This document shows, piece after piece, positions 2,479 to 64,000 of a DNA stretch of 64,000 nt (its first letter is position 1; every line of letters starts with the position of its first letter). The notes under the pieces were generated by a model. That model saw only the letters and a program-made list of their open reading frames with translations, was not told the origin of the DNA and made no database searches. The translations under genes and the position numbers were made by a program. The stretch lies in IMG/VR virus record IMGVR_UViG_3300023109_000014, positions 1-64,000 of that record; one strand, given 5' to 3'. The DNA comes from a virus.

Positions 2479-2510
2479 CAAATTAAGATAACTTATATAA
2501 CATTATTATT

Positions 2511-36252: not shown

Positions 36253-36265
36253 CATGCCATGAAGC

Positions 36266-37342: not shown

Positions 37343-37377
37343 ATAAATAGATTAGTTTAGTGTAAATACTATTTGAA

Positions 37378-40300
37378 ATGGCGCAAGAAAATATTAGAGT
37401 AAGAGTTAAGGCGATTGGGTTAGATCAAGACATCGCCAACCAAGCAAAAATAGGCGAAAAGAAAATAAAACCTATTAAGCTTTCTTTGAATGAAAAAGGG
37501 CTTGTGCAACCTCTCGGTAGAATTACTGGGCAAATGGGAGAATTCGAGAAATCGATGGATGCTGCGGTTGCTCGTGTATTCGCTTTTGGAGCTGCTGTTT
37601 CTGTTATAAATGGAGTATCTAGCGCATTAAAAGCTATGGCGCAATCTGCAATGGAAGTTCAAAAAGCTTTGAAGGATATCAATGTTATTATGAATATGTC
37701 AGAATCTGCTTTGCAAAATTTTGGCGGAGCTTTATTTGATGTTGCTAGAGATACTGCTTCATCATTTGATGATATTTCTGCAGCAGCAACTGAATTTGCC
37801 AGACAAGGCTTAAGCGCTGACGAAACACTGCAGAGAATTGCTGACGCTATGACCTTAACGAGATTGTCTGGCATGGACTCTGTAGAAGCTGTAAATGCTT
37901 TAACCGCTGCAATTAATGGTTTTAATGACGCAGCAATCAATTCCTCTGATATTGTGAATAGGCTAGCTAATGTTGATGCCGCATTCGCTGTATCTTCAAA
38001 AGATTTAGCTGATGGATTGGCGCGAGCAGGGGCAACTGCCCAAGCTGCAAAAGTAGAATTTAACGAGCTGCTTGCTGCAGTTACAAGCGTTCAACAGCAA
38101 ACCGCTAGAGGTGGCGCAGTGATTGGAAACTCTTTTAAAAGTATATTTACTAGGCTTCAGAGATCGAGCGTAAAAGAAGCTATGGAGGCTATAGGTGTCG
38201 CGACCCAGGATGCTTCTGGTTCATTTAGGTCTGGAATGGCAATCTTGCAAGATTATGCTAGAGGTTATGATAATTTATCTGACTCGCAAAAAGCTGCCAC
38301 TGACGAATTAGTTGCTGGGGTTTTTCAGGTTAATAATTTAAAAGCTTTGATTAAAGATTTAAATAGTGAGTTTAGTATATACGATCAAGCTTTAAAAACT
38401 GCAAACAGTAGTACAAACGAAGCCACTCAAAGAAATCAAGAATTGAACAAGACTATGTCGGCTTTGATGACTCAAACTGGTCTATCTATTAAAGAGCTTG
38501 CTGCAGGCCTTGGAGAAATGACCCTTGGGCCTGGGATCGAGAAAGTTCTCGAAACAGTAAAATCTTTATCTGACGGTTTAAATAACTTAATAGGTGAAGA
38601 TACTGGCTCAAGCATAGGTAAAACTCTTTTAAAAGGCATTGGTAGTTTTATTAGTGGTCCTGGGATGGTTTTAATTGGGGGTGCGTTTATTAAATTATTT
38701 GCGTTTGTCGCACAACAAGGTTCGAGTGCACTAAAATCAATCTTTTCCATCAATAGCGAAACTAAAAGACAAGAAGGTTTGCAGGCAGCAATTCTGCAAA
38801 TATTAATGAATGAAGAAAGTATTCGACAGAAAATCCTGGGTGGCGCCGCAAGTCAAGCGGCGAAAGAGCAAACGATTTTAAGCGTTTTAAAAAAGCAAAC
38901 CATGGAAAGGCAGGCGCAAGATGCGCTTTTAAAAAAAATCGCTGCGTCGTCTACATTAGCAAATGTCGCAATAAGTAATCAAGGAACCATTGTTCCGCAT
39001 GGTAGGGGTTCTAGAGCTGCCGCAGGCAGAAAAGATCTTGGAATGTCTAAGGGTTATGTTCCTCCAGCCACTAAAGATTCTAAATTTATTCCATCTTTCG
39101 AGGCTGAACAAAAAGATATAGAGAGAAGGGTTGGAGGCGCAACTAAATCAGCTTCTCCAGTTTTAATAAAAGGTTTTCAAAAAACTAAAACGCAAAAACA
39201 AGATGTCGTCGCTAATACGGACGAGGTTGTTGTTGAAAATTATATGGGTTCGGGCGCTTCCGCCATTTTAAACAAAAACATGGCTCAAAGGTTTAGTTTT
39301 GATAATGGGGTAGAGAAATATTACTCTGCTGCAGAATATGGTTCAAAAAATTTCTATTCGTCTGGCTATGTTCCTAATTTCAAAGCAACAAATAAGCAGG
39401 TAATTAAATTAAATGCAGCTGGACAAGGAATTATAACTGCAGAAGCTGGAAAGTCAGAAGTTGGTAAAAATCATACAGTTACTGCTTCTTCAGTTTTTGA
39501 TGGCCCAGTTCCTCCAGCATTTAAAGGTTCAAAATTTGAAGCAAGAAATTTTACAGTTGGAAGATTAGAACAATCTAAAGGAGGCTTTCATAGTATTGTA
39601 GATAAGCATATGACTACTGCATTAAGAGACGTTGCCCAAGATGTTGTTCCAGGTGGAAAGGTTAAAGGTTCTGGACCCCTGAGTGATTATTTAGATAAAT
39701 CTGCAGGACCTCAATTTACTGGAAGAATTTTTGAGGCAACCTTAAATTATATTAAAAATTCAGTAGTTAAAAATGATCCTGGAACAGCTGGCTGGGATTT
39801 TCCTGGAGGACAGTTTCAAAAAAATCTAACTACTGCATTTAATCTTGATTCAAGAAAAGGAAAAAATGTCGATGCAAAAGTGTCATCCAGCAAAAAAAAC
39901 ATAGGAAGCGGCATTAAGAAAATTATTGACTCTAGGGGTGGTTATAAAAATTTAAAGCAGTACAAAGATTTTGAAAAACAAAATAAAACTAAAAAAGCTT
40001 CTGCAGTTGGAAAACCAAGAGCTTCAAAAGGAATGATTCCATCAAATACCGCAAGTGTTCCGAATTTTGTATCCACTTGGGGTAAACCAGAATTGCTTAA
40101 AAAGATTAGAGAAAAGAATTTATCAAGAGCTCAAAAAGATATTAAAGGTTTTGACGGCATGAAGGCAACTAATGAATGGAGCGGTCAATTACCTATTATA
40201 CAAGTCGCCGATAAAAAAACTGGAACAACAACTAGATTTACTTATGGTAAGGGAGAGTATGATAACGAAAATAAGACTGACATTTTATATTCAGAAAGAG

Positions 40301-43300
40301 CTAAAGGGGTAGACGTAAACGATCCTTCTATGAAAGGTGGAGCTAATAGAAATTTTGATAAAATCGCAGAGTTTACAGGAAAAAGAAGTTGGAAAAATAA
40401 AGAGATTCATAGCACCTTTGACCAAATTCGAGCTTCTTCAGGCAAGACTCCTTGGGAAACCATAATCAATTCATTCCCGCAATTAAAACAAAGAGTTAAG
40501 CCAGGAATGTCAACCTCGGGAACTTTTCAAATTGGTACTGATGAAATCGAATATAGAAATATTAAATCTTTAAAAACTAAAGTTAATAAATGGGTTAAAG
40601 AAAATGGTATAGAGTCATTTAATAATTGGTCAGAAGCAAATTTAGGCTTTAATACAAAAAACTCAATTTTAAGCGGAACTGCATCTGGCGAATATTTTGC
40701 TATGGATGCATATACAAAAATATTAAAAAAAGGAGACAAGCATTTTAATCGAGATGAAAAAGCTGGCTTTTATTCTCAGGGAACTGTCCCTAATTTTATT
40801 ATTGATAAGAATACTGAAAGATCTATATTGCTTAAACAATGGCAGGGAAAACTTGATCAAGCCAGAACTCTCGCTAAATCAGGAAAACCCAGAGCTCAAA
40901 CAGACCCTCAAATTAGCCAACTGAATGGCGAAGCAAATGGAATATGGAGCCAGATTGTTAAAATGCAATCCCCTCAAAAGCCAAAAACCAAAAACGAAAA
41001 AAGCCACTCTGAAGGTTTGATCCCTAACTTCTCTAGTTATTTAGATGCTGGCAGCAATGTTGATAAAAGTTTTGGAGGAGGGATTGTTCCTAATTTTGTC
41101 AAGGTTGGCGAAACAAATCTAGAGAGAGACCGCCTTTTAAAGCAATGGCAAGGCAAACTTGCACAAGCAAAAACCTTATCTCAATCGGGTAAACCCAGAG
41201 CTCAAATAGATCCTCAAATTAGCCAGCTTAACGCAGAGGCAAATGGGGTATGGAGCCAAATCCAAAGTTTAAAAACTTCAAAAAAAGAAAAAACAGGAAA
41301 ATTAGGAAAAGGTTCTACGCTTAGAAGATCTGAGGGTCTTGTTCCCGCTTTGGCAAAAGGTGGAATACCAAACTTTAGCGAAGATAAGATGCGTGAAGAA
41401 ACGTTAAGTAGGACAATATCGAAAATGTCTGAAGGTTTAGTTCCCAACTTTGCTCTCAAAAGAAATGCTGGACTAAGAAAGTTTTACGATTTTGACGAAA
41501 CTTTAGGAACGTATTCTAAAAACGTTAAATCTAAGGATTTATTTCAAGCGGAGTCAGCAGGGCTTGCGAAACCAACCCCTCTCGCAAAAGAACTTGAGGG
41601 GCAAGCCGTAACTATTTTAACCGCAAGAGCAAAGCAGTCAACTCCATTTATTGAAGAAAAATTAAAGAAGTGGGGTATTAATCCTGAAAAGATTATGACT
41701 ACTGCGGATATGTTTAATAATCTTAAAATTGCTAATGACGGGTCTGGAAAAATTATTAAGGCTCAAGGAGGAAGAATCTCTGGTTATAGAAATTTAAAAC
41801 CTGCCGAGAAAAAAGCTATTCTTCTTGAAAGAATATGGAAAAAACAAGGAGGTCAATACGATTTAATTGATGATGCGATTGAAAACATCGAAGCAATTAA
41901 AAACTTAAGGAATGAAAATATAACTGGCACTCATTATCAATTTAGTGGTCAGCATTCTGGAAGAGGTAGTGGGAATGCCGAAGGTTTAGTTCCCAACTTT
42001 GTTCAATCAGAAAATACTCAAAAAGATCTTGTCCCCAATTTTGCTGCAAAAAGCATGCCTGTTCCTGGTTATTTAGAAAAAGTTTCCAGAGAAATTCAGT
42101 CTGCAGGGGGTAGTGCTCAAATTGTTGGTGGGGCTCCTAGAGATTTTTTAATGGGAAAATTTCCTAAAGATTGGGATGTAGAGGTTTTTGGTTTAGAACA
42201 AGAAAAGTTGCAAAAAATATTGTCTCCATCTTTAACTAAAGAAGGTTTAGTTGGTAAAGATTTTGGAGTATTCAAAGCTAAAAGTGGAGGTCAAGATTTT
42301 GAGTTCTCGATGCCAAGAAGAGAAAAGAAAGTGGGTGTTGGGCATAGAGGTTTTGAGGTTGAAGTAGATCCTAACATGGGGCGTAAAGAAGCTGCACAAA
42401 GAAGAGATTTAACAATCAATTCTATTTCTTACGACCCCCTTACAAAGAAATTTATTGACCCCTTGGGGGGGAGGAAGGATTTACAAGACGGCATCATGAA
42501 GCCTACGTCTCCCAGATTTAAAGAAGACCCTTTGAGAGTGTTAAGATCTATGCAGATGGCTGGAAGGTTTAATCTTTCTGCAGATAAAGAATTGGTCAAC
42601 TATTCTCGAGAAATGACTGGACAATTTAAAGACCTTCCGAAAGAAAGAGTGAGAGAAGAATGGATGAAATGGGCATCTAAATCTACCAATCCAGAAAAAG
42701 GTTTACAATTTTTAAAAGAGTCTGGGTGGATAAAACATTTTCCTGAAATTGATCAATTGCAGGGAGTTCCCCAGTCTCCCAAGCATCACCCTGAAGGAGA
42801 TGTGTTTAATCACACAAAGCTTGTGACGAATGCAATGGCGAATAATAAAAACTGGCAAATGCTTCCAGAGAAAGAGAGGGGTAAATTAATGTTTTCTGCT
42901 TTGACTCATGATTTTGGAAAAGTTACAAATACACAAATAAGTAAAGATGGCGCTATAACTTCTTATGGGCACGAGAAAGCTGGAGTAGCACCAATGAAAA
43001 GTTTCTTGGGTAGGATTATGTCTCAAGGAGAAGCGAGTAAATTATCTAAAGACTTAACGCCTTTTGTTGAAAGACATATGTTTCACTCAAATTTTCCTCA
43101 GAATTTGACGCAGAAATCTATTAATAGGTTGACTAAGGACGTAGGGGACCTAAGCAAGTTTCAAATATTGCTTGAATCTGACATGGGTAAAAATTTATCG
43201 GATGATGTAACTGCCAGAAAATTTACTCAGGTTGACGAAAAAAATATTAATAAGATGAGTTCAATCGCAAAAGAAAGTGGAATATATAAAGAGCCGCCTA

Positions 43301-58300: not shown

Positions 58301-61300
58301 CTATTAGTGATGCAGCCAATTTTGGTGGAGGGTCTGCCCGAGGAATGACTGTATCGAGCTTGATTAATATAGGAGCAATTGGTTTGGCTCAAACCGAAAC
58401 TGGAATGTCTACTATTGATTCTCTCGCAGGGTCGTTTGATTTTAGCAGAAAAGATAAATTTGGCGTAAGGCTAGCTGGCGGCGAACTTGCGACTTCTTCT
58501 GGGGTAAGTGTTAAAAGTCAGCAACACTTACTTAACGAAGAAAAAATGAGTCAATTAAAATCTATGGCCGAGAGCAAGCGAGATGGAGATCGAGCTGCTA
58601 CGGAAAAATATAGAACACAAGGCAAAGACTTTTTAGAATCTACTGGCCTTGCAGAAGCTGGTTCCGCTAAACCAATTCTTTTTGACACAAAAGAAGAGGC
58701 AGAACAATGGTCTAAGACTATGACAGACAAACATGGTACTCAATTCGCTGGCACTCAAAATTTATCAGCCTCCAAAGACGGACAGAAAATATTGAGAGAA
58801 ATGGGGGTAAGTTTTTCTCAAGAAGAATTAATTGCTGGTCAGTCGGGCGCAACTGTAGTTGGCGCTACAGGAGGTTTACTTGCTGAAAGTGGCGCAATGG
58901 CTCTAAAGGCTAGAATAGGAATTAATGGAACAAGAATGACTACGGGAGCAGCTTTACGAATAGGCGCTACACAGGCTTTCTTGCCTGGTTTAGCTATTGA
59001 GGCTGGTATTGCTACAGGAGAACATTTTAGAGATAGTCATTCTGGCCACCTGTTTAGTGTTGCGGGAATTGATGTCGATGAGGGCGAAGCTTTAGGTCTA
59101 GCTGGTTATATGGCAGGAGGCGCTGTTGCAGGAACTTTCTTGGGGGGCCCTATGGGTGCTGTGGTCGGTGGCCTTGCTGGAGCAGGGGCGTATGGGGCAA
59201 GAGTCGCAATTGGTGAGCATGTAAATTTTGACCCAGATGAAATAAATTCTGGAACGTTTAGAATGAGTCCCGATGAGCTTAAGGCTAGACAACAAGAAAT
59301 TATAGAACTTGCAAGAAGTAAATCCAACGAAATTAGGAAAATTATGGATACTGCTGCAATGTCTAATTATACCTCTCGCAATAAAAAAATTAAAAGCGAT
59401 TTTGTTTCAGAGGAGGGGTTTGAGACGTTTTATGAGAGATCTGAAATGCAAAAACAACAAAGACTATTGACTGAAAAAGCTTCAATAATAAGAGAGAGTT
59501 TTTTACTCGCAGAGAAAATGGACGCAAAAATATTAGCGAACAGAGAATTAAAGCAGAAAGGGGAGGTTAATGATAATTGGTTTGCTGAAGACGATCCAGT
59601 ATTTAAGCAGAATTATACTGCTGACGCTATTTCTAAAATTTTAAGTGATACAACCTCTCTTTATGACCCTAATATGTTTACAGATATTAAGACTATGAGA
59701 AAGATGGCTAAAGAAGGAAAAACTCAAAATGAAATTCATGCAGAGATGCAGTCTGCAGATTTTAAGTTTGAAAGAATAAATCCAGACACTGGACAGATGG
59801 AAACTATTATGCCTAACACAGAAGAAGCTTTAGCGCAGAGAGGTATTAAGTCTCAGAAGTATTTAAGTGGCTTAGGTAGAATAAATGACTTCAATGCCAA
59901 ACAAGGCTTAATGAGATCTAGTACTGATTTTGCCTCTGCAAGTTCTGTAGAGGAAGCTATAGAAATTGGTTCTATGTCTCAAGGCCAGTTTGAGGAAGAA
60001 AAGCTTCGCTGGAATCCCAAGTCTGAAGGAAAATTTGCAAAGCTAAAAGACAGAAGACATAAATTATTTTATTCAGAAGGTAAAAAAATTACCAATCATG
60101 ATCAGTGGTTAGAAGCTATTCAAAGAGGGCAATTGGATTACGGTCGAATTAACTATCCGATGGAAATGGCTCAAGTAATGGGAGTACCTACAATGGAGGG
60201 GGAGAGAGTCGTGAAGAATGCTGATATCACTTCTGATGTCAAAAATGCATTTAATTATTTTCAAGATAAGGGTACTTTGTATAGAAAACCTATTCAGGCT
60301 ACAGATAGAATTATAGAATCTATGGGAATGAAGAGTAAGGGTTCAGATGATCAGGGAGAGTCTAAAATTGATGAATGGATGTTAGGAAAGCAAGATGATG
60401 GATGGAATGTTCAGTATCATCCTGAATCAAAATCTGTTATGATGCAGCACGAAAAGCACGGCCTCATTTCTTTTCCAAGAGGAGCTGATCCTAGTGATCC
60501 TAGAAGTCTTGAAAGCTTGTATGAGAAATATATGTTTGATATTACAAAGAGTAAGTATGAGGATGGAATTATTCATAATAATAAGAGTGGGTATGACCCT
60601 GCTAATACTGCTGGAATGTCAGATTCTGACCCGCTTAGGGATATTAACTCTTCTGATCAAGTGGGTTTTTCAAAAAGTAAATTTAAAACATTTGAAGAAT
60701 TTGATAAAACTATTCCCGAAGAACAGAGAGTTATGCTTTCTGCGATGTCCGCTTTGTTTAAAAGAGGCGAAGGCTTAAATGATGTTCGAAAAAATAGAGT
60801 AAGTACTGGCAATAAAGTTGACGAGTACGCTCAAGCTTTTGAGGATTTGAAAAATGATCACAGTATGTATGGAGAATTCCAGAAAGCAATCACAGAAAGA
60901 AATATTGGAATAAACACTTCTAAAACAATGATTGGGCAAGCTGGTTTTGATATGCAAAAAGGTTTGGGTAATACAAGTCAGTTGGAAAATATTAATTCAG
61001 AACTTGGTATTAAAGATAAAGCTTATAATTTTAACCTTGGAAACTTAAGCGAAGAAGATCTTCAATCTTATACAAGTAGGTTTAGCGGAGCTATTGCAAA
61101 AAAACAACAAGATTATCAAGTAGTAAAAGAAAAGGTTTCAAGCAGGCAGGCAGAAATATCTCTCATAAATAAAAAAATAAATAGCGGAGTTAATCAAGAC
61201 GAGAAAAATAAACTTATAACAAAAAGAACAAAAATTGAAGAAGCTCTAAAACAAACAAAAATTAAAAAAGGCAACTTAGAATCTTTTATTACTGCTCCAG

Positions 61301-64000
61301 AAAAAATTAAACAAGCTAACCAATTAAAGAGAGGTTCTCAATTTAAGTTTCAAGAGAGTATAAATAGGTTATCTAAGAAATTTAATATTGATGAGGGCGC
61401 TTCTCTGGGAAGTAAGGTCGCAAGATTGCAGGGTCACTTTGATCGCAATCCTGCACTCCAATCAAAAAGTAGTTGGATGGATAGAGAAAAAGCTATTCAA
61501 ATGAACGTTCTTAAGAACAGAAGACTCGCTAAACAAAAAAGAGATGGCAAGAAACTTTTAACAGATCAAGATTTAACGGATGCAAATGGTAACTCTGTAG
61601 ATAGCCTTGTCGCTCAAAGAGCAAAACGTTTAAAAGAGGGTGGAGCTAAAATGTTAGATAGTAATCTTTTTGCGTCAGATGTTGGTCGACAAAAACAATT
61701 AAAGCAAAATGTTGATGATTGGGCAAATAAAAGAGGCGATTACCACTTAGGCACAGTTGGTAATGTGAGTTATAGCCCAGAAACACTAAATTTGGAGAAA
61801 AAGATGAAGCTTTCTCAAAAACAGAAAGGTATGGTTATCGCTGATTTTGATAAAGAAAATATTCATGGAGAAAGAAGAGAAACTGCAATCAAATTGTATG
61901 ACAAAGAAATTCAAGATTACATGGTTAAATTTGAGGAAAGTAAAGCGAAAGATGTTCTTAATTATAAATTAATTAATCCAACTGTAACGAAAAGCGCTGT
62001 AGAAGATCAGAAAAAATTCCAAGACCTCCAAAGCAAACATAGTCACTGGGATGAAGTTATATCTAGCAACGAGTCTACAGATGATTTCGAATCTCTATAT
62101 AAACAAAAACAGGAAGCTTTTCAAGATTGGGATTTGGTTCGAGGCTTACCTAATATGATGAAGCATACCGCTACCATGCAGGCTGCTGGAAGGAAGCAAG
62201 CTGGATTTTTCTTAGAGCCAGATGTAGCTGTTGGAGCAATTCCTTACAAAGAGATTAAAAGCGAAAAAGCTTCCTTAAATAAACATTTAAGTACTGCAGG
62301 GCTATCGATGGATTGGTGGCGACAAAAAGATGTTGGCTCCAGACCCGCAGAATTTAATAAATTATTAATGCGTAACGCTAGAACTCAATCTAAACTTGTT
62401 GGAAAAGATCAAATTTCAGAAGTTGGAGGGGCTAGAATTTCTGGAAATTTAGGTCAAGGCGTTATAGATGGAGATAGGGCAAAACAAGACTTTACTAATA
62501 TAGTCGATCCTGATGGAAACCTTGCTCGTTCTGGGCATGATAGGGCTAAGGGAGCCCTCATGAAAGTAATCAAGAATGACTGGGACTTATTTGACCTCAA
62601 TAAAGATGGAAAGTTAACTTCTGAAGAAATATCAATTATGGGTGGAACGTTTGATCCTACTAAGTTTACTTCTTCCGCTATTACTGGAAAGAATAATGAT
62701 CCCTATAGCGAGCTGCAAAGAAATATGTTTGGCGCTAGAGCGGGCACAATTACGCCTGAAGTTTTTCAAGATTTACTTTCTTTTGATAAGGCAGTTAGCG
62801 GGGGAAATGAAGACGGCGTACTCGATCGAAATGAAATTTTTGCAAACGATCCAGAGAAGGGTAATGAAATTATACAAACTAGAGTCAAAGACTTTTTGAC
62901 AAAAAAATATGTCAAGGAAGTTTCACCTTATGGAGAAACTTTAAAGCACGGGCTTGAGTCATATTTCACTGGTTCGGACGAAGGCGGACTTTCCTCAATT
63001 AATACGTGGAAAGAATTATCTAATCTTGAGAAATCTAATTTGCCAGAAAATATTAGAGAAGAGTATTCTTCTGCCAAGACAGAAGCGGAAGCTTTGATTA
63101 CTTCCGTTCCTTACCATAAAACAATTATTAATAAAGGTTCAAAATTAGAAGAAGACTCTCAATCGAAGTTTGGGAAATTGTTTGACATGAAAGAAAGGAT
63201 AAAGCTTTCTCCTTCAGAAATTGAAGCGGGTGGACAGCTAAACCTTCAGTTAAAAAGTATGAAGGGAAAAGAGGCTACTCCCGCTTACAAACAAAAGAAA
63301 GCTCAGTTTGATTCCTTAATGCAAAGAAAGCAAGATTATAAAAATATAGAAAAAGAACTTAATTCATCTTTTACAGAAGATGGAATGATTAAGGGTCGAC
63401 CATTTAGCTTGCCTCATTTTTTAACTAAAAAAGGTTTGCTTAATTCTGGAGATATTAAACAAAATCCAAACTGGGCTCCTGCTAGCATAGATGACAATTG
63501 GAAAAATTATGATGAAAAATATTTTGGAAATGTTCAGGGTGTTGCCAGACAGATAGATGCTGTGCAGGCAGCTACCGTAGATTCAAATATTGGTGTATCT
63601 GTCGGTGGTGGCGTTGCCGATGCAGAGGAAAATAAATTCTTTAATGAAACCATAAGAAAGGCGAAGGAAGAAAAAGTTACCAAAGAAAGAGAAAAGTTTC
63701 TTAAAGAAAATACCAACGAAAGAGCAAGAAAAATATTTGAACAAGAAATGATTGGAGCAGACCCTTCTTCTAGAAACTTGTTTGATCCTTCTGCGAATAT
63801 TAAGCTTCAGGCGCAAGGTTTTAGAAGTGGAGAAAAGCAGGCGCAGGAAAAGCGTGACGAAGGCTTAAAACGTATGGTTGATAATGCAAAACAAAGAAAT
63901 GCGCAGCGTCAAGCTTTTACAGATGTTAGAGATCCGTTGCAGTTTATACAAAATTACAGCAGCGATTACAACGAAAGAAAAGGTCAGCTCTGGAGAAATG
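37378..64000 (+). CDS. giant tape measure protein fused to a multi-effector array (>8,870 aa, 3'-incomplete)
   Basis: ATG 37378 MAQENIRVRVK; TP901-type TMP core (EFARQG...LTRLSG...NRLANVDAAFAVSSKDLADGLARAG...TARGGAVIGNSFKSIFTRL); no in-frame stop in the lines translated, and no ORF in this frame in the track, consistent with running off the window. Confidence 0.92.
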   Translation, partial: MAQENIRVRVKAIGLDQDIANQAKIGEKKIKPIKLSLNEKGLVQPLGRITGQMGEFEKSMDAAVARVFAFGAAVSVINGVSSALKAMAQSAMEVQKALKDINVIMNMSESALQNFGGALFDVARDTASSFDDISAAATEFARQGLSADETLQRIADAMTLTRLSGMDSVEAVNALTAAINGFNDAAINSSDIVNRLANVDAAFAVSSKDLADGLARAGATAQAAKVEFNELLAAVTSVQQQTARGGAVIGNSFKSIFTRLQRSSVKEAMEAIGVATQDASGSFRSGMAILQDYARGYDNLSDSQKAATDELVAGVFQVNNLKALIKDLNSEFSIYDQALKTANSSTNEATQRNQELNKTMSALMTQTGLSIKELAAGLGEMTLGPGIEKVLETVKSLSDGLNNLIGEDTGSSIGKTLLKGIGSFISGPGMVLIGGAFIKLFAFVAQQGSSALKSIFSINSETKRQEGLQAAILQILMNEESIRQKILGGAASQAAKEQTILSVLKKQTMERQAQDALLKKIAASSTLANVAISNQGTIVPHGRGSRAAAGRKDLGMSKGYVPPATKDSKFIPSFEAEQKDIERRVGGATKSASPVLIKGFQKTKTQKQDVVANTDEVVVENYMGSGASAILNKNMAQRFSFDNGVEKYYSAAEYGSKNFYSSGYVPNFKATNKQVIKLNAAGQGIITAEAGKSEVGKNHTVTASSVFDGPVPPAFKGSKFEARNFTVGRLEQSKGGFHSIVDKHMTTALRDVAQDVVPGGKVKGSGPLSDYLDKSAGPQFTGRIFEATLNYIKNSVVKNDPGTAGWDFPGGQFQKNLTTAFNLDSRKGKNVDAKVSSSKKNIGSGIKKIIDSRGGYKNLKQYKDFEKQNKTKKASAVGKPRASKGMIPSNTASVPNFVSTWGKPELLKKIREKNLSRAQKDIKGFDGMKATNEWSGQLPIIQVADKKTGTTTRFTYGKGEYDNENKTDILYSERAKGVDVNDPSMKGGANRNFDKIAEFTGKRSWKNKEIHSTFDQIRASSGKTPWETIINSFPQLKQRVKPGMSTSGTFQIGTDEIEYRNIKSLKTKVNKWVKENGIESFNNWSEANLGFNTKNSILSGTASGEYFAMDAYTKILKKGDKHFNRDEKAGFYSQGTVPNFIIDKNTERSILLKQWQGKLDQARTLAKSGKPRAQTDPQISQLNGEANGIWSQIVKMQSPQKPKTKNEKSHSEGLIPNFSSYLDAGSNVDKSFGGGIVPNFVKVGETNLERDRLLKQWQGKLAQAKTLSQSGKPRAQIDPQISQLNAEANGVWSQIQSLKTSKKEKTGKLGKGSTLRRSEGLVPALAKGGIPNFSEDKMREETLSRTISKMSEGLVPNFALKRNAGLRKFYDFDETLGTYSKNVKSKDLFQAESAGLAKPTPLAKELEGQAVTILTARAKQSTPFIEEKLKKWGINPEKIMTTADMFNNLKIANDGSGKIIKAQGGRISGYRNLKPAEKKAILLERIWKKQGGQYDLIDDAIENIEAIKNLRNENITGTHYQFSGQHSGRGSGNAEGLVPNFVQSENTQKDLVPNFAAKSMPVPGYLEKVSREIQSAGGSAQIVGGAPRDFLMGKFPKDWDVEVFGLEQEKLQKILSPSLTKEGLVGKDFGVFKAKSGGQDFEFSMPRREKKVGVGHRGFEVEVDPNMGRKEAAQRRDLTINSISYDPLTKKFIDPLGGRKDLQDGIMKPTSPRFKEDPLRVLRSMQMAGRFNLSADKELVNYSREMTGQFKDLPKERVREEWMKWASKSTNPEKGLQFLKESGWIKHFPEIDQLQGVPQSPKHHPEGDVFNHTKLVTNAMANNKNWQMLPEKERGKLMFSALTHDFGKVTNTQISKDGAITSYGHEKAGVAPMKSFLGRIMSQGEASKLSKDLTPFVERHMFHSNFPQNLTQKSINRLTKDVGDLSKFQILLESDMGKNLSDDVTARKFTQVDEKNINKMSSIAKESGIYKEPPKPIVQGRDLMQEKLIEPGPQMGSVLKHLEEAQISGEFKTKKGGIEYFKNNKEDILKRINKFTPKGRMLRGRASGEVPEKINYSQGLVPNFARIPSMFNVKQTKTGKDYVMQKDLELAKTQFPDATFKQWGKNPKMHFISGHKPQNKITKDKVSFASNVDLQEFGSFAAQKGYPEVMGAIVKSTQVKQNSSGNRNYDRLTSWKNKKEEVPNQINIKDAQSLSTEDYKSFPMGKAGADLKRLYNPDSFDNVSNTIFTSSAPQKALAKSAEKFTTNKIENSEDILNFVKKSRGSESISTEQINKLYQEFAEMKGLAVMSDGHVPNFASPAFNKFIKDNIHNKNYKNISDKVTKLNLSVGNAYGVGGDIPQDVKILNRLTSQLSKVTNPLMGPTGKGSRDRVYESKEFAQKFNKTEYDKISKEITTLQKEKFQLSRPSNPDKNPDRVKKIESQILKKKEQATNTQFYKAKSEAVKKEDQGIERLFQEKFTVQKDQIVSPTGKTVSTKDLNSIEEEFNEYMFAKQQKRTNTNEELVLPNFSVTAPETVPNFVNVKAMRELAKRGATEGERAAAQNMLAKHGFKSKTITSRSWHDKIFLENYIKNNGPKSDLEMLIKKGYAEKELVSLKKQYQNDPQSVKIANHGIVPSFSKQKDRISEADYETQLYKENFKDSSQKQNVNNFSFVDDRTTSSSGSQSFAEGMVSKDVSSSSSSVDSKSFASGTVSNISSQETETLATGFIPNFGIQSDRIKEASQASQLYGQNVGYKDTQVKKLEINGKKERVVVNNKEKFYSTGSEVQKAFSLPFKPNGGMVLPPKNTKVGKERSREFSSLVNSFSSGVTPTADSSPPTLAYGAMPNFAVFRKYSPNTLRKSKIKDYSNEEFSSISRALSEFNLMSMGSRGGLMGQKLKSESRAEGLFKTKTQEQKDDFRQFFNSREFRSLTKNVQEKLKVDFPDLSRGYGYNVDPFAVRQLENVSAGTVPNYANLSLYRGQKKSTIDKPSVGKNMPSFGGAQTPRDIINIIQNFVKSHVSGPLSGRRDIGELDNVAPSGATSFSTSETVAKKFAGGGLNKPAKDNILSTQVPEKNVFNKKKILKLLNRGANPKKGQYPEVEKFKKAMASGQIQKWAEQAGGLFLNVSGRRNDKSLQKFNKTEYGRKEYDFYDRPMSSIVPESDIGWNPSGTKQISPHENEVMQIFDEGIVPNFSGAAGSAGRQKNKAYQDDPDNIIDLRPFTTFDYSLLFPQRGAGKSKDETLRGSGPYAKKYQSQFLVGWNAKGINPKIPKEADKIAKIGDAVERDVKTIVKAHSENFVRAFGEEKIRIQDSSAIDGVVQKHFNEGTLTAMAGNAFEAAANTAFSNVPVNAGGGDFDVRGPTDQLRRFFNWPSAHGSVGDFKANSQSGDIKASMADKILKELDYRGLLSGQVAKEKADFDQYDKDKAAKNKAATISRFKNVPGSNSLRGGITQKAPKGSAPSESNQQHSKIVGSSRSGQEQEDFYFSQDKNLSLGWVPNFKINQNLAGDSVPSFIDKPKEQLNNSLKVKSEKVDLQKSLKAKKGTSVDSQNELRSQNVSNASAKKFESIINNRFIDSQENKKFSSSSFADSAQSKSLQFSRSSSNLSSDFLNTRSENKVSKDASVDSQTYSQGMVSKDASVDSQTYSQGMVSKDNQVPSKSLEASKFDLTTIHRLRDKFLSREEAVQKNISPSERKLALPKGKKQEGNSELINSIYSHGKDFSADRLSNGYIPNFAINANNYSKTNDALGSAIKRENQAGIPMNKIRVGQSNRLKNEKNPGGVGVFNTIDEPRGLNQGISRSISQGINPHKHGLVSSGYVPQQTINVPNFVGRFIPKMFKGGSKGGKGVDAPIPTSGGGGGGMLGGGGGLMNTIFMGQMMFGGIEGKTGTAGGYAADATGDALQIAGITSMITDKKKWVALAATVGALNGMLDQYSKSLKMQGEQIQKNIQINGKAIESATQVVSAQTRLNSAIESGNTDNISKAIESLQKEIERFPTNGSDAIIKLRSDLVGAGGDVEIMSKALESFSQSALKVSKLGELTVKTQAVNENREGLIFGMGPSQLPEWMGGAKGDLKEEGSNEIRQIGRESVTNLALAEDQVSAFSSKISKIDFTKMSPDDIKSTIKEFSRTLDEETRVLFDQIVDNVPDDAVVDFTMGIGEQLKLRKSSIEAGKAVGKTSQALGNLKSTIVNLSTAVSRSISELNSNISKAFDIAENQLNSELSIMTGMNYISPKEANETKEQFEVTRIESEAAAGTEFEVSKFVSQLIKDTKLDDVEGKDASIFSGKLGNILSKMGERANPLQDEDPRFMANEIVSAISQMDPADRTQGEQELLDAVKQIGDKAASQITLLKQANELASRQQTMQSRMNLQNAQIDMERDGDTLSQFSWSQGLEPRTQLDKDMQTRSSMDMIGLLEPLFGPSEDLTKMKQDVGVQNAIGNVQRILLGMGIENDAGFDAGANEDISMQTMISEMQKVLAQGDLNKGQEKIVNYMVGQLKKQEAAISATPQNTEDLKRQTVQSTSDVLGVDLSEVGIDLESLDFSSLNAIADQLAEDGVEIKYLSSIEENTKVMAAKLNDAQGITKEDIISAIQNIQIKDAEKVEKRKEAVKQKEDTRSKIQDIAISGADVKVEGGADINVGGSTTINANPQSSQPPQPQFNPFVPNFAKDESSNNKQSPMRGFVKSLKRDNNTENRGFEKFDGKTFTGGKALQVANYYPGAIDSIYREVDVLENRGVQNAISKIQLTVPSTSNSTTKYQGPVVTNMMDEGSVSAQSYLNKINNVHNLKHSDSNFSIAGAVPNFASSSQSRGSVNASVRNVNAKSIANNISRINQKSDWKMARGEESAGKTYSSGAALRVANYYPETKEMLDQEISILKSRGIDSPLSQVQLTVPDENTTTFQNKNTLDPTISNRFDDGSVSISNYTKKIRNAHKVGLLTPQKPASVGEHARERAKNLVNNEQALRNQLHENILKKRKSVVLSEELKSRNESIDEPEAKKINITEKEGLKYEGGTFSAGAALRVAKYYPGATESIFREIRSLEEKGVSSPLDQVQLTIPEKGSKEFSSYNGPVVTNKIDEGGVSSKNYLNKIRSVHKVTPNEGQFASVGMPNIDAKSQYTRGAINSFSQFDYVPNFSKTEGRAKGIIRSARELSIAMEKMNELPENITPSQIAEFNQKGSAVLENINSLGNPNQQTLTKTQKALVSKMQDPEVVKTFQSIGIDNFNSDLAQFVNPDSLGEPPQPARFNPLVIQSAETGRAVESGTKVLPRDIKSGKFNVAQVMLNDENLDEFIEPSESKNIQAVVQSSQDSGQKFNENKKKLQEKRPNYASGKGTRYTDEPTAPKAGTLTTAKKEGFVGIESHGPSKALATQVRNEENALKNTTKELVKDGEGGFMRNASSWIRKKLQTIRFLDGSSNEQKQGMSIEKENAVLKQIEDDGIVRYPSDDSASPLEKSPEFKQQISEVLDNQDLSSQERGTSQIEQQTETWRKREHSLTEKIQRATKARQLKRQRSRAQELGSAERQRKTNLDAKNKRQEAKEREKRKVREIQERQIDEGLGRQKIGTNSETGKSIYHYDNPQLRELSSWDKLKHHMLKFVGLDEGSYYEEVERQNKIVRNKQMQDIATGGINTQQSKSMSTLEKLKLMSERDVLIESSEFAKETDGQKILRGTPGERRKSSLFDIQQKAGVGGKPAVINLAGDISSQTNIAGSSSKSSSLTQLSQSRAAEAQPTLMDKIRNVKKQLSEKFGKVTLSPTSSASVLQEYDILDSSGRVVAKMGSNGEVLPFEVDNSPVIYNAQGQKIGADKVIQVQEKQFALQSSPMNDGQLSTSVNQSDVLEQKALFDIGEKIKSGAPISSAETNLVQNWANKNSELVGSINADDVDNALLLENNVVDNKQIRIGRMGEELSNLTSVTNAANAEAQVESLIKDPQFVDSATRTMPGDNLHLQRVFDSIDDKNRKTKSTPIKTETALDRVKSNANINQRANALSKEMVSRDIRKNSSLELQKRLRLNKGFDTTELNTKFSNEKSRLEELLKNPSIPSDKKVGLNEDLKILTRNRNEHLNTLRPGFMERKEILINEQFKNIMRDTGLMSLTGGGADGVSSNDPVNQFMKDKLGPKVWNMDGNFVKTKQHLASAIFGEEHKFNKELTESLVDRQLRSTILNTKSETFGLSDHMRSNLIDMDKFVGMGLGDEFLNSAKKQGLHQSDIGVSKMVDFMDLMDPAGNKIDGEGKQKLKKQGIQKIFQKIQNGELFSQTAIRGRTVPIIPKDAETVLKNLSGESTSAQINAARLIENEQKISSLAAEKGSGVISQSNLKIAASELEAGDINENGIDFDKVRMSSEEISNVQSMMDSIDADPDQKTDQRVSQLSEALDPQSSNESVRSLSQLKSLELEADRAAEKAEFKKLLSLGSGATPEDVGRMSDLLQLHDQKIELGRSSNFDLEDVNQARTTIKNTAKEKVATASSTIGKELSQKSEPGQAQKRAIEELEKIDQADPVEQAEAIRSTNQEAEAKVRSASLDQGEDIVQQTVDQVEDVDETWKETKESHMSDPDRAASAGRLEELGEKYRAIIQSATDSKAWRTTRSLTKNVLGAGMGLVHLPGKAKDLTTEAYGSVKERIDAFKKAQAEKFNKRKAEQIKHPDGKSSGNFEQQEKSRVIDAKLAQLPNTKTSRGDSSLDDSLQKTKRFHIDGENMTPFEQDLHDRMTGKVRVKDSAGKTVETFYDKKIASVITNSDVGRISRVEDSITGSSYTNRGLKLRNLLPGTASRNIEGRSFIPPALQEIASLGGLDGQGSKLKLDKEGLAQRAKNIGSEIFTGKLSSPVQSLFSTKEFQTQLAETKSSGAHVAIPEEFSKTVKYGKKGEASVLDIDGAADELIKETRLIDHVGDDGKLTSFSSDEFQAFRESEFQKIEQRFAGVDNPADPVQNEQRITQINEQKEMFDNKILANNAVDESGQVVGRNTLTSEAARKRIANIQKMSVSDGMIRKQKAISDAANFGGGSARGMTVSSLINIGAIGLAQTETGMSTIDSLAGSFDFSRKDKFGVRLAGGELATSSGVSVKSQQHLLNEEKMSQLKSMAESKRDGDRAATEKYRTQGKDFLESTGLAEAGSAKPILFDTKEEAEQWSKTMTDKHGTQFAGTQNLSASKDGQKILREMGVSFSQEELIAGQSGATVVGATGGLLAESGAMALKARIGINGTRMTTGAALRIGATQAFLPGLAIEAGIATGEHFRDSHSGHLFSVAGIDVDEGEALGLAGYMAGGAVAGTFLGGPMGAVVGGLAGAGAYGARVAIGEHVNFDPDEINSGTFRMSPDELKARQQEIIELARSKSNEIRKIMDTAAMSNYTSRNKKIKSDFVSEEGFETFYERSEMQKQQRLLTEKASIIRESFLLAEKMDAKILANRELKQKGEVNDNWFAEDDPVFKQNYTADAISKILSDTTSLYDPNMFTDIKTMRKMAKEGKTQNEIHAEMQSADFKFERINPDTGQMETIMPNTEEALAQRGIKSQKYLSGLGRINDFNAKQGLMRSSTDFASASSVEEAIEIGSMSQGQFEEEKLRWNPKSEGKFAKLKDRRHKLFYSEGKKITNHDQWLEAIQRGQLDYGRINYPMEMAQVMGVPTMEGERVVKNADITSDVKNAFNYFQDKGTLYRKPIQATDRIIESMGMKSKGSDDQGESKIDEWMLGKQDDGWNVQYHPESKSVMMQHEKHGLISFPRGADPSDPRSLESLYEKYMFDITKSKYEDGIIHNNKSGYDPANTAGMSDSDPLRDINSSDQVGFSKSKFKTFEEFDKTIPEEQRVMLSAMSALFKRGEGLNDVRKNRVSTGNKVDEYAQAFEDLKNDHSMYGEFQKAITERNIGINTSKTMIGQAGFDMQKGLGNTSQLENINSELGIKDKAYNFNLGNLSEEDLQSYTSRFSGAIAKKQQDYQVVKEKVSSRQAEISLINKKINSGVNQDEKNKLITKRTKIEEALKQTKIKKGNLESFITAPEKIKQANQLKRGSQFKFQESINRLSKKFNIDEGASLGSKVARLQGHFDRNPALQSKSSWMDREKAIQMNVLKNRRLAKQKRDGKKLLTDQDLTDANGNSVDSLVAQRAKRLKEGGAKMLDSNLFASDVGRQKQLKQNVDDWANKRGDYHLGTVGNVSYSPETLNLEKKMKLSQKQKGMVIADFDKENIHGERRETAIKLYDKEIQDYMVKFEESKAKDVLNYKLINPTVTKSAVEDQKKFQDLQSKHSHWDEVISSNESTDDFESLYKQKQEAFQDWDLVRGLPNMMKHTATMQAAGRKQAGFFLEPDVAVGAIPYKEIKSEKASLNKHLSTAGLSMDWWRQKDVGSRPAEFNKLLMRNARTQSKLVGKDQISEVGGARISGNLGQGVIDGDRAKQDFTNIVDPDGNLARSGHDRAKGALMKVIKNDWDLFDLNKDGKLTSEEISIMGGTFDPTKFTSSAITGKNNDPYSELQRNMFGARAGTITPEVFQDLLSFDKAVSGGNEDGVLDRNEIFANDPEKGNEIIQTRVKDFLTKKYVKEVSPYGETLKHGLESYFTGSDEGGLSSINTWKELSNLEKSNLPENIREEYSSAKTEAEALITSVPYHKTIINKGSKLEEDSQSKFGKLFDMKERIKLSPSEIEAGGQLNLQLKSMKGKEATPAYKQKKAQFDSLMQRKQDYKNIEKELNSSFTEDGMIKGRPFSLPHFLTKKGLLNSGDIKQNPNWAPASIDDNWKNYDEKYFGNVQGVARQIDAVQAATVDSNIGVSVGGGVADAEENKFFNETIRKAKEEKVTKEREKFLKENTNERARKIFEQEMIGADPSSRNLFDPSANIKLQAQGFRSGEKQAQEKRDEGLKRMVDNAKQRNAQRQAFTDVRDPLQFIQNYSSDYNERKGQLWRN
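39382..40056 (+). other. PD-(D/E)xK nuclease-like module 1 in giant protein
   Basis: GRIFEA...WDF...VDAK between VPNF motifs. Confidence 0.5.
41452..41988 (+). other. HAD-superfamily phosphatase module in giant protein
   Basis: motif I FYDFDETL (41488), II ILTAR (41614), III EKK, IV LIDDAIEN (41869). Confidence 0.85.
42043..43557 (+). other. cca: complete class II CCA-adding tRNA nucleotidyltransferase with HD domain in giant protein
   Basis: VGGAPRD..PKDWD, RRDLTIN, DPLGG..DL, EDPLRVLR, ERVREEW.K, HHPEGDVFNHT, HDFGK, GHE, GRDL..PGP..G. Confidence 0.93.
44938..45219 (+). other. DUF2786-like module in giant protein
   Basis: ELAKRGATEGERAAAQNMLAKHG. Confidence 0.5.
46237..46887 (+). other. 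R-S-E class ADP-ribosyltransferase module in giant protein
   Basis: LYRG (46249), TSFSTS.TVAKKFA (46441), ENEV (46852). Confidence 0.75.
46900..47811 (+). other. PD-(D/E)xK nuclease-like module 2 in giant protein
   Basis: GNAFEA...DFDV...GDFK. Confidence 0.5.
48181..48284 (+). repeat. perfect 48-bp tandem repeat (x2 plus partial), in frame
   Basis: tcgaaagacgcttctgtggattcgcaaacttactcgcagggcatggtg twice; encodes SKDASVDSQTYSQGMV. Confidence 0.95.
51420..52620 (+). repeat. three copies of a ~85 aa domain in giant protein
   Basis: AL.VA.YYP...E...L...G....QLT.P...V.N..D[ED]G.VS..Y..KI...H at ~51430, ~51865, ~52355. Confidence 0.85.
62593..62628 (+). other. EF-hand Ca-binding loop in giant protein
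   Basis: FDLNKDGKLTSEE. Confidence 0.6.

Follow-up and report, generated by a model that had tools for sequence, protein, structure and literature searches.

An enzyme fused to a tape measure protein (TMP) has been described before. The gp96 protein of Thermus phage P23-45 (also in P74-26, G20c and TSP4) is likewise a giant TMP, of 5,002 aa and from an extremely long tail, that holds a cytoplasm-acting enzyme in the same polypeptide; at 5 min post infection, the RNA polymerase fused to this TMP sits on the phage DNA (PMC10770324). Many unrelated conflict-type domains are joined, in mosaic fashion, in the huge polypeptides called polyvalent proteins, and the relevant sections of Iyer et al. 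(2017, PMC5512222) suggest that these enter together with the DNA and come apart once deployed. In T5 pb2 and lambda gpH, the TMP is a trimer and a defined cut frees an enzymatic domain; the passages on T5 locate the cut next to a hydrophobic stretch and retain both pieces in the tail (PMC10038345). Sle1-type effectors of actinobacterial contractile injection systems are portrayed, in the passages on them, as exchangeable domains on a TMP-derived scaffold that is packed in a tail-like tube (PMC13277306).

Enzymes within TMPs are also known from SPbeta YomI, which has the same PF10145-type core as the protein described here (30% identity) and contains a cell-wall hydrolase region, and, going by a partial account, from the TMP of mycobacteriophage TM4, in which a cell-wall hydrolase region is embedded. 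In polymorphic toxins (VENN in CdiA, the core end in Rhs), variable modules are swapped at a junction marked by a short invariant peptide. The protein analysed below is a genuine TMP of an uncultured marine long-tailed phage and an extreme representative of a large, uncultured family of TMPs.

Extent and identity of the giant tape measure gene

The window (the whole stretch of 64,000 nt that was analysed) contains a frame that had not been called as a gene. As the initial annotation had noticed, this frame stays open from ATG 37378 to the window end, over 8,874 codons without a stop. Extension into the complete record (82,461 bases, no N) located the stop codon at TAA 68689-68691 and gave a protein of 10,437 aa, longer than first claimed. 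In our judgement, a chance origin of such a long ORF at about 37% G+C is ruled out. The gene, its core and the genes upstream are as follows (for the X domain, see below).

33680..34531 (+), probable tail tube protein, sub-threshold match
35383..37342 (+), two conserved genes, 35383-36252 (289 aa) and 36266-37342 (358 aa), at the place of the chaperones and in synteny with TMPs that carry the X domain
37378..64000 (+), giant TMP gene within the window, aa 1-8874, running on to the TAA of the record
37378..39087 (+), TP901-type TMP core, aa 1-570, by PF10145, PHROGs and hydropathy

A chimeric contig, in which a TMP core had been joined to unrelated coding sequence, was considered. The unitigs of run X1, the probable source, are indeed interrupted twice, at 38350-38382 and at 48181-48258, where a short repeat has double depth. 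However, three unitigs at a depth of about 29 tile 37000-56999, and the junction of core and cargo lies inside one of them, a unitig of 9,858 bases and even depth that covers 38353-48210. Contigs of the independent marine runs X2-X4, from other samples, gave depth in 30/30 bins, with no differences in the pieces listed. Orthologues from two separate metagenome assemblies, G003 (10,562 aa, 59% identity over q1-9675) and G002 (8,166 aa), are moreover collinear with the giant TMP for thousands of residues, both break points included, so that an artefact is scarcely conceivable. Small apparent joints (skips of 4313, 4369 and 539 bases) were rejected as variants and taken as cross-matches, because one side comprised only 21-23 letters within motif-coding sequence.

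PF10145 (PhageMin_Tail) matches aa 122-307 with 98.9 bits (cutoff 33.2), and the TMP PHROGs 4211, 14917, 28 and 9696, which together cover aa 26-470, match as well. The TP901-type core that had been proposed for the first ~550 aa is thus well founded and comprises about 570 aa. Hydropathy analysis placed hydrophobic segments at aa 59-85, 420-448, 7249-7267 and 9709-9730, the second of which (nt 38635-38721) is the one anticipated near 38620-38710. The core is 37-90% identical to those of all long relatives, and the TMPs of SPbeta (YomI) and Tsamsa share 25-30% identity with the giant TMP.

The set of relatives comprised 15 giant and 16 shorter proteins, with PF10145 on record in all except 5. 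One scan of IMG/VR returned 434 matching stretches of the family, and a tblastn search of 50,697 phage records with two X-domain copies gave no match in cultured phages. The complete, non-redundant members (n=82) range from 1.9k to 10.6k aa, the giant TMP being among the two largest. The family has a fixed frame: the TP901-type core is followed by a small X domain, and after this come the variable array, another X domain, a hydrophobic stretch rich in Gly and, last, a long C-terminal part. Three MAG contigs from Cellvibrionales, Thermodesulfobacteriota and Flavobacteriaceae bins carry the X domain, a distribution too weak to name a host. The 64,000-nt window contains no tRNA genes.

The earlier statement that the gene follows tail tube and chaperone genes is only partly borne out: ORF 33680-34531 matches Phage_tube_2 below threshold with 24.2 bits (cutoff 27) and a minor-tail PHROG with 6e-6. 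The three ORFs between the tube-like ORF and the TMP matched nothing in PHROGs or profile searches (nor did the downstream ORFs), and no G/GT frameshift joins the upstream genes, the second frame opening 3 nt before its own ATG. For the two upstream proteins, P0033 and P0034, PDB profile searches returned nothing or coiled-coil noise, and PHROGs nothing meaningful. Both are unusually large and co-occur with X-domain TMPs at 49 and 47 of 99 loci, in about 40 syntenic pairs.

An array of cassettes fenced by a conserved motif

Downstream of the core, the protein is organised as follows.

39088..48813 (+), main cargo array, aa 571-3812, about 20 modules, with the fence motif at the end of each
39370..39381 (+), first exact VPNF, aa 665-668, the first exact one among 27 motif copies in aa 571-5117, the last of which ends at nt 52728
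48529..48813 (+), X domain (M19), aa 3718-3812, closing the array
48814..51324 (+), Gly-rich hydrophobic stretch, then a TMP-like segment, aa 3813-4649, from the sequence and from relatives
51325..52728 (+), three X-like repeats, aa 4650-5117, two of them matched by the X profile, with motifs at aa 4782 and 5114
52729..64000 (+), post-array part, aa 5118-8874 in the window and to aa 10437 in the record, 36-50% identical to G003 and of similar length

The string of unrelated modules that had been noticed between the TMP core and a Gly-rich segment is present. Its proposed span of residues ~665-3810 agrees with the outermost VPNF copies of the main array (aa 665 and 3809), and the hydrophobic Gly-rich stretch does resume beyond it, from aa 3813. 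The further suggestion that much of the protein is probably cargo was an overstatement, since the array makes up about 33% of the giant TMP and 63% lies after it.

The fence motif reads [AS]-x-G-hydrophobic-[VI]-P-N-[FY]. Exact VPNF occurs 16 times in the giant TMP (0.046 expected) and in 2-23 copies in each of 15 relatives (0.06-0.29 expected). In a logo of 230 copies, P and N reach 100% and G 87%. The motif is absent from the other genes of the phage, and its codons vary synonymously. At orthologous sites, 25/27 copies are kept, the two lost in G003 leaving the frame intact, and the core residues of the motif are 85% identical as against 63% in the flanks. Each copy forms a hydrophobic island in Gly/Ser/Lys/Pro-rich linkers and, at the end of such a linker, abuts the N-terminus of the following module. 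The distance from motif to motif in the main array is irregular and ranges from 11 to 509 aa.

Comparison of homologous TMPs, which had been expected to differ in cargo, confirmed that relatives carry different modules; 659 modules of the family were sorted into 169 clusters. The ends of HSPs fell within 20 aa of a motif in 108/141 cases, and of the distinct breakpoints, 18/32 did so (19.8% expected, P = 5.7e-6). The CCA module described below occupies a different position in P0003, and module M16 is 64-77% identical between proteins whose cores are only 39-45% identical. The array consists of cassettes, each ending in a motif conserved at the peptide level, where lineages insert, delete and move them. 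The cargo is also under selection: its modules are 80-94% identical to those of G003, as compared with 36-50% for the post-array part. Two apparent natural gene fissions at the motif (L091 and L058) were discarded, since each proved to be a frameshift within an X domain, with Ns present in L091.

The modules and the X domain

The modules considered individually are listed here.

39382..40068 (+), M2, aa 669-897, weak profile link to M17
40069..40797 (+), M3, aa 898-1140, 93% identical in G003, its cluster present in 15/112 family proteins
41452..42000 (+), M8, aa 1359-1541, HAD-like motif pattern only (DxDxT, T, K, DD)
42043..43569 (+), M9, aa 1556-2064, probable class II CCA-adding/repair nucleotidyltransferase with HD region, by PF01743, PHROG 2244, PDB and NF008137
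46237..46899 (+), M16, aa 2954-3174, R / S-T-S / E-x-E pattern, the commonest recognisable cargo in the sample
46900..47823 (+), M17, aa 3175-3482, 64-77% identical in G003, G002 and P0002

M9 belongs to the CCA/poly(A) polymerase superfamily. It matches PF01743 (PolyA_pol head) with 69.2 bits (cutoff 23), PHROG 2244 with 2.8e-66, and CCA/poly(A) polymerases in the PDB with profile E-values of 5e-20 to 1e-4. Its translation contains, in this order, GG..RD..DxD, RRD, EDPLR and HD; GG..RD, DxD, RRD and EDxxR are what we take to be the catalytic motifs of class II CCA enzymes. The best NCBIfam match is NF008137 (CCA addition/repair; 173 bits, 8.5e-51), with PcnB models scoring lower. CCA specificity is only likely, because these 173 bits are below the cutoff of 451 and PcnB models match too. 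The module is 94% identical in G003.

The description of the region as an array of enzymes therefore holds for M9 only. No other module has a significant family match; the same was true of 20/20 sampled module clusters of relatives. A function was thus identified for one of about 20 modules. In M8, the four HAD motifs are in order and invariant in 5 sequences, which is a pattern only: the best Pfam match was DUF2608 (E 0.11), and a PDB profile search gave no HAD match. In M16, R7, S70-S74 and E206/E208 are invariant in 8 sequences, an ART-like pattern only, in which the gap ahead of E-x-E is unusually long. This module matched nothing in Pfam at E <= 5, the best PDB profile hit (E 0.29) was unrelated, an AF2 model from the 8-sequence alignment was unusable (pLDDT 45.8), and an HMMER search of 1.84 billion proteins gave 17 matches, none leading to a known family. 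A relation between M2 and M17 as nucleases was weak in hhalign (E 0.011, probability 3.7%). The ART (M16), HAD (M8) and nuclease (M2/M17) readings thus gained no support from these tests. The module homologues that were found lie within TMP-core proteins or in unclassified pieces and include no known free-standing family. Scans of the TMP and of the scanned parts of the phage with Pfam, PHROGs and NCBIfam revealed no peptidase or protease.

The X domain, present in 33/34 family proteins, is a new family-wide unit of about 85 aa that ends in the motif. It is small and has no conserved Ser or Cys. Among 57 members, 0 Pfam families matched significantly, and the PDB profile search returned only a 20-residue peptide (E 0.12). 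In an AF2 model, the core reached a pLDDT of 75-84 and the motif tail stayed below 50, so the tail is read as a free linear motif on the strength of this prediction. The predicted fold had a best E of 1.0 in Foldseek against the PDB and a best Z of 2.5 in VIA-align against 48,161 chains, which does not make the fold new.

Possible roles of the array and comparison with known systems

Taking the evidence as a whole, the best explanation, and on balance a probable one, is that the TMP serves as a vehicle bringing the cassettes into the host. By analogy with other TMPs, the protein would become part of the tail and be ejected into the host when infection occurs; ejected with it, the cassettes would reach the cell before the expression of any phage gene. 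There, the CCA enzyme would maintain usable tRNA 3' ends in the face of nucleases from the host or from competitors, and the motif would be the signal for handling each cassette as a unit. Folded modules of 200-500 aa in three copies would be too big for the tail lumen, and an unfolded or staggered state must therefore be assumed. Quite possibly, the motif is a cleavage site, and a cut after Asn or after Phe/Tyr releases the cassettes. It is more doubtful that it serves as a strand on which a partner in assembly docks, e.g. the two upstream proteins or the tube lumen, with some other function taking up the remaining likelihood. Being universal and always beside the motif, the X domain is the foremost candidate for a part acting on the motif or together with it.

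Tetravirus capsids mature at Asn|Phe by asparagine-driven self-cleavage. A bolder version of delivery, in our view unlikely, takes the tail lumen to carry an injectable polyprotein: after ejection, the X domain would cut every Pro-Asn-Phe, by Asn-driven self-cleavage or as a new peptidase activity, and release about 20 free proteins, and the 169 clusters, of which nearly all lack known relatives, would be a large, untapped library of first-minute anti-host or anti-defence effectors that are exchanged as cassettes. Cutting might also occur in the producer cell. There, a late-expressed polyprotein would be cut at the motifs, the modules would act in the infected cell, and only the TMP-like parts would enter the tail, so that the ruler alone is delivered. 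Folded enzymes need not fit the tail lumen in that case, the position of the motif, after a linker and directly before the next module, resembles that of sites in viral polyproteins, and the sections on maturation in PMC10038345 describe cutting of the lambda and T5 TMPs during tail morphogenesis. Against it, the same source keeps both T5 pieces in the tail, a late CCA enzyme needs no TMP (free-standing phage tRNA nucleotidyltransferases exist, PHROG 2244), and the homologues of the modules gave no known free-standing family. In every member, moreover, the array sits between two conserved TMP parts, so that its excision would part core from ruler. We regard this alternative as distinctly unlikely. 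Somewhat unlikely, too, is an intact chain in which the motif strand binds again and again during assembly, be it to the upstream proteins, to the lumen of the tube or to the X domain, and keeps the modules unfolded or ordered. As binding motifs commonly do, this one forms a hydrophobic island in Gly/Ser/Lys/Pro-rich linkers and is unstructured in the AF2 model; the TMPs are accompanied by two proteins of unusual size at the place of the chaperones, and no protease was found. The spacing of 11-509 aa is, however, ill-suited to a periodic tube, and the motif lies directly against the N-terminus of the following module, not in mid-linker.

The post-array part matched no family, PDB entry or repeat except the X-like units, and its reading as a coiled coil was dropped, since the composition is not distinctive and no further repeats were seen. 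Its length may nevertheless matter. Across the 82 members, total length correlates more strongly with the post-array part (r = 0.92) than with the array (r = 0.77), and the giant TMP and G003 have post-array parts of 5,320 aa and 5,360 aa despite their low identity. TMP rulers measure about 0.15 nm per residue, at which the non-array part alone would correspond to about 0.8-1.0 micrometre, a value that bears on the maximal length of tails and proteins in phages. The initial annotation had argued against a role as ruler only, on the grounds that it implies a tail of >1.3 um; a very long tail is not absurd. In such a role, all 10,437 residues would set a tail of about 1.5 micrometres, the modules would be captured spacer and the motif a recombination scar. 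The correlation of total length with the non-array part and the matching post-array lengths speak for this, as does the extraordinarily long tail that, in the part of PMC10770324 devoted to it, is defined by the 5,002-aa TMP of P23-45. Nevertheless, we consider it very improbable. The motif is kept as a peptide while its codons vary, and is therefore no DNA scar; the modules are far better conserved than the putative ruler, and the CCA module retains all catalytic motifs at 94% identity in G003.

If the cassettes are delivered, as we favour, they would represent a general, modular tail route for many ready-made proteins, going further than P23-45 with its one fused polymerase. A virion-borne CCA enzyme, if true, would suggest that marine phages must cope with attack on tRNA 3' ends as a defence during the first minutes. 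In practical terms, the fence motif and the X domain provide a sequence handle to find such arrays, as in the 434 IMG/VR stretches, and to split them into units; the resulting catalogue, hundreds of module families in all, offers strong candidates for early host-takeover or counter-defence factors.

The literature covered (open-licence PMC papers and bioRxiv, supplements aside) contained no description of a motif-fenced TMP array. The main text of PMC5512222 has 0 occurrences of tape measure proteins, supplementary architectures aside, and its relevant sections propose packaging in the head and separation by embedded metallopeptidases, whereas no peptidase was detected in the giant TMP. Hallmark polyvalent domains were likewise not found in it, PF02195 being on record in one relative, and where polyvalent proteins are defined by several recognisable effectors, the giant TMP has many unrelated modules and one recognisable. 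T5 pb2 is cut at one site, after R1127, in contrast to about 27 motifs here, and its enzyme is muralytic and not cytoplasmic, according to the passages on this protein (PMC10038345). In YomI and the TM4 TMP, one or two domains degrade the wall, acting outside the cytoplasm, and there is no cassette array. CdiA and Rhs proteins have one junction each, carry toxins and use a different delivery machine, whereas the giant TMP is multi-module. Sle1-type effectors belong to a cellular injection system and have one C-terminal functional domain, with no fence motif in the passages describing them (PMC13277306). For gp96, the pertinent part of PMC10770324 describes one N-terminal enzyme and mentions no array, fence motif or X domain. 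The giant TMP is twice as long as gp96 and has its core first and about 20 cassettes after it, so that the resemblance is one of architecture. A TMP-fused enzyme is already known from P23-45 gp96, and the motif-fenced cassette array is a new variation on it, for which we infer cleavage and delivery.

Extent, core and surroundings of the giant gene

The initial annotation described an uncalled frame running open from the ATG at 37378 to the end of the window, and this frame is indeed uninterrupted over 8,874 codons. When the contig was extended to find the stop, a TAA was located at 68689-68691 of the full 82,461-base record (no N), yielding a protein of 10,437 residues. The record, whose first 64 kb form the window, is about 60% complete according to CheckV.

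A chimeric assembly, raised as a possibility in the initial annotation, was addressed with assembly data: unitigs of four metagenome runs (X1-X4) and two independent orthologues support one continuous gene. Twenty marine/seawater metagenome runs from 11 studies contain a 10-kb stretch of the gene. Run X1, in which 0.99 of the sampled words matched, is probably the source of the record; X2 and X3 (0.78 and 0.77) belong to other studies. Over 37000-56999, X1 yields three unitigs of even depth (about 29), and the junction between the core (approximately the first 570 residues) and the module array (aa 571-3812) lies inside one 9,858-base unitig spanning 38353-48210. The only unitig breaks are at 38350-38382 and 48181-48258. 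At the second (aa ~3600-3630), a short piece of the Ser-rich module M18 is tandemly duplicated and represented by a unitig of double depth, and the orthologue G003 is collinear across it. X2-X4 have depth in 30/30 bins over the same interval, and their listed pieces show no differences. Both orthologues are IMG/VR contigs from different metagenomes. G003 encodes an uninterrupted protein of 10,562 aa, aligned in a single HSP with 59% identity over residues 1-9675 of the query, and G002 one of 8,166 aa, also uninterrupted, which lacks residues 1071-2517 and keeps 2697-3489 at 71%. The giant ORF is no assembly artefact.

The predicted TP901-type tape measure protein (TMP) core was borne out by PF10145 (PhageMin_Tail) at aa 122-307 (98.9 bits, cutoff 33.2) and TMP PHROGs at aa 26-470. 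A hydrophobic segment, also predicted, was found at aa 420-448 (nt 38635-38721), and the claimed module region is bounded by the first VPNF at aa 665 and a VPNF at aa 3809. The nearest cultured relatives of the core are the TMPs of the Bacillus phages SPbeta (YomI) and Tsamsa, with 25-30% identity; no closer cultured relative was found. Cysteine is nearly absent from the giant protein (its frequency rounds to 0.000), with a Cys-Cys pair near the C-terminus.

The gene had also been said to follow tail tube and chaperone genes. This is borne out in part: one ORF has a sub-threshold tube match, and the three ORFs between this tube-like ORF and the TMP gene match no family. No G/GT-type overlap was found upstream of the TMP gene. 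The relevant upstream ORFs are:

33680-34531, tube-like ORF; sub-threshold tube match (24.2 bits, cutoff 27), PHROG 290 at 6e-6
35383-36252, conserved gene just upstream of the TMP gene (289 aa); no family match, acidic C-terminus
36266-37342, conserved gene just upstream of the TMP gene (358 aa); no family match, acidic C-terminus

The two conserved genes co-occur with TMPs carrying the X domain described below in 49/99 and 47/99 loci, with about 40 syntenic pairs. Their products occupy the chaperone position, are 2-3 times the usual chaperone size and have no frameshift link. Homologues of the tube-like ORF (22-30% identity) lie downstream of the TMP gene in distant members (L073, L081, L096, L100 and others), and these may be distal tail proteins sharing the tube fold. 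Elsewhere, an ERCC4-type nuclease match (PHROG 3490, 5e-9) at 20720-21685 directly precedes the large terminase at 21628-23547 (PHROG 2, 8e-21). Most other ORFs of the phage have no PHROG or Pfam family.

Motif-bounded modules and their variation

Each module ends in a motif of general formula [AS]-x-G-hydrophobic-[VI]-P-N-[FY]. The exact form VPNF occurs 16 times, against 0.046 copies expected from composition, always within aa 665-5117; the looser [VIL]PN[FY] occurs 23 times. Each of 15 giant relatives contains 2-23 copies (0.06-0.29 expected). In a logo of 230 copies from 18 proteins, P and N are invariant (100% each), preceded by V (57%) or I (38%) and followed by F (82%) or Y (18%) and then A (43%). 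Further upstream, the positions are hydrophobic (-5), A/S (-4, 70%), G (-2, 87%) and F/L/Y/H/M/I (-1). The surrounding linkers are rich in Gly, Lys, Ser and Pro. The copies differ in their synonymous codons, and no other gene of the phage contains the full motif, so selection acts on the peptide rather than on a DNA repeat. Between the giant protein and G003, the motif is retained at 25/27 orthologous sites, with 85% identity in its four core residues, compared to 63% for the flanks and 74% for the whole region. The two losses in G003 (at aa ~4787-4883 and opposite aa 3493 of the giant protein) leave frame and neighbouring modules intact, indicating that not all copies are essential.

Comparison of homologous TMPs agreed with the expected variability of the cargo: relatives differ by whole blocks, and modules change position. 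The giant protein is collinear with its closest long relative, P0002, apart from blocks that only the giant protein has (about aa 1145-1347, 1549-2517, 2829-3161 and 3486-3709). Among all relatives except G003, 108/141 HSP ends fall within 20 aa of a motif end. For distinct breakpoints the count is 18/32, against 19.8% expected (binomial P = 5.7e-6), and those away from motifs mostly lie after aa 3813, where similarity fades gradually. The CCA module is relocated to aa 4840-5203 in P0003, and M16 to aa 1507-1740 in P0004. M16 was detected in 14/33 relatives at 46-84% identity, with one further partial match at 27%. In the relatives P0017-P0024 it is 64-77% identical although the cores are only 39-45% identical to the giant core, which points either to exchange between lineages or to far tighter constraint on the module. 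When 112 family proteins were cut at the motifs, 659 internal modules in 169 clusters resulted, including 98 singletons. Array length rises with the number of motifs (r = 0.79, 82 complete members).

The modules had been described as an enzyme cargo array. This holds for one enzyme; the other readings proposed gained no firm support.

aa 1556-2064, CCA-type module M9; class II nucleotidyltransferase of the CCA-adding type, with HD region

M9 matches PF01743 (69.2 bits), PHROG 2244 (2.8e-66) and solved CCA/poly(A) enzymes (down to 5e-20), as well as the NCBIfam model "multifunctional CCA addition/repair protein" at 8.5e-51, which is under the equivalog cutoff. The catalytic motifs are visible in the translation, and the G003 counterpart shares 94% identity. 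Membership of this enzyme superfamily is beyond doubt, with CCA addition the likely specificity. No tRNA or tmRNA genes were found in window positions 1-64000, despite the probable tRNA-end repair enzyme in the tail protein.

M16 was considered as an ADP-ribosyltransferase (ART), as R, S-T-S and E-x-E are invariant in 8 sequences, but homology support was lacking: Pfam (E <= 5) and a PDB profile search returned nothing, the AF2 model was unusable, and none of 17 matches among 1.84 billion representative proteins was linked to a known family. M8 keeps four HAD-type motifs, yet reached no HAD family or structure. Evidence that M2 and M17 are related is weak (hhalign E 0.011, probability 3.7%). 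None of the 20 module clusters common in relatives had a Pfam match above the gathering score; further Pfam accessions on record in relatives are PF02195, PF01476, PF10902, PF16581 and PF07022.

The X domain, the family and the source of length

Four iterations of a profile seeded with the last array module, M19 (aa 3718-3812), defined a small domain, X. It measures about 85 aa and occurs in 33 of the 34 proteins scanned, the one without it being a 101-aa fragment. Strongly conserved residues are Arg-Glu, Asn-Pro-x-Gly, Val-x-Asn-x-x-Asp-Glu-Pro, Gln-Gly-Ile and His-Gly, with the motif at the end. Typical sites are right after the core and the array end just before a Gly-rich hydrophobic stretch; in the giant protein, the profile also matches two of three tandem X-like repeats (aa 4650-5117). 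In eight loci (L027, L031, L034, L037, L048, L052, L066, L072) His-Gly is fused directly to V/I-P-N-F, so the A/S-x-G-hydrophobic spacer, missing there, is dispensable. An AF2 model from 57 sequences predicts a small alpha/beta core (pLDDT 75-84); the motif tail, with pLDDT below 50, is not packed on the domain. None of 57 members had a Pfam family, and neither sequence relatives in the PDB, fold matches for the model nor matches in cultured phages were found.

Fifteen relatives of 4,887-7,751 aa were obtained in a search limited to proteins of 4,880-15,530 aa, 14 of them with PF10145 on record. A further 16, none of them a named free-standing enzyme, came from two cargo-region searches of shorter proteins. 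PF10145 is on record for 13, including P0026 (734 aa), and not for P0019 (1,495 aa), P0025 (3,187 aa) and P0032 (101 aa). Scanning IMG/VR once with the X-domain alignment yielded 434 stretches that match, and 80 loci were retained from these. The ORF holding the X domain was located in 78, and wherever its 5' end is present it also encodes the TMP core, except in the frameshifted L058. L058 and L091 were rejected as split TMP genes; their frameshifts lie inside an X domain (L091 also has 5 N) and are probably sequence errors. Among 185,579 species genomes, X-domain matches were confined to three MAG contigs (L102, L103, L104). L102 (210,818 bases), from a Cellvibrionales MAG, could represent a phage genome swept into the bin rather than a prophage.

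The 82 complete non-redundant members range from about 1,900 to 10,562 aa, the giant protein and G003 being the two largest. If the array is taken to end where the first strong X domain ends, the giant protein consists of a core (by profile, to about aa 420), an array of 3,402 aa (33%) and a post-array part of 6,615 aa (63%). For the whole set of 82, total length correlates with the post-array part at r = 0.92 and with the array at r = 0.77. After the X-like repeats, the giant protein and G003 continue for 5,320 and 5,360 aa with an identity of only 36-50%; such similar lengths despite divergence would suit a length-determining role. The composition here is unlike an obvious uninterrupted coiled coil, and the post-array part had no match in Pfam, PHROGs, NCBIfam or the PDB.

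A putative role of the motif and comparison with known systems

The T5 TMP is a trimer filling the tube lumen and is cut after R1127, adjoining a hydrophobic stretch; this splits off an enzymatic domain, with both parts remaining in the tail (PMC10038345). For P23-45, a 5,002-aa TMP that defines an extraordinarily long tail has been described, together with a TMP-fused RNA polymerase that is present on the phage DNA 5 min post-infection (PMC10770324). By analogy, the giant TMP would be incorporated in the tail and expelled at infection, and the cassettes (modules with their motifs) would enter the cell ahead of phage gene expression. The motif may be the site where each cassette is processed or held. 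This proposal builds on its character as a hydrophobic island in the linkers, the invariant Pro-Asn, the small residue after Phe/Tyr, its place directly before the next module start, its universal association with the X domain and the copy beside a hydrophobic stretch.

That copy adjoins the hydrophobic stretch as the T5 cut site does. Cleavage at the motif is the role we consider likeliest, at slightly under even odds. Docking of an assembly partner, for which the two proteins encoded just upstream would be the obvious candidates, comes second with a clearly lower probability, and the rest of the probability goes to roles other than cleavage or docking.

Enzymes fused to TMPs, maturation cleavage of TMPs and polyvalent proteins are already known. 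No TMP with a multi-cassette array inside it, bounded by a single conserved peptide and associated with a universal small domain, was found in our literature search. Polyvalent proteins follow a similar logic, and TMPs are not mentioned in the main text of Iyer et al. 2017 (PMC5512222). In 2026, a contractile injection system was reported to have a TMP-derived effector that swaps domains (PMC13277306). P23-45 gp96 is the closest known system.
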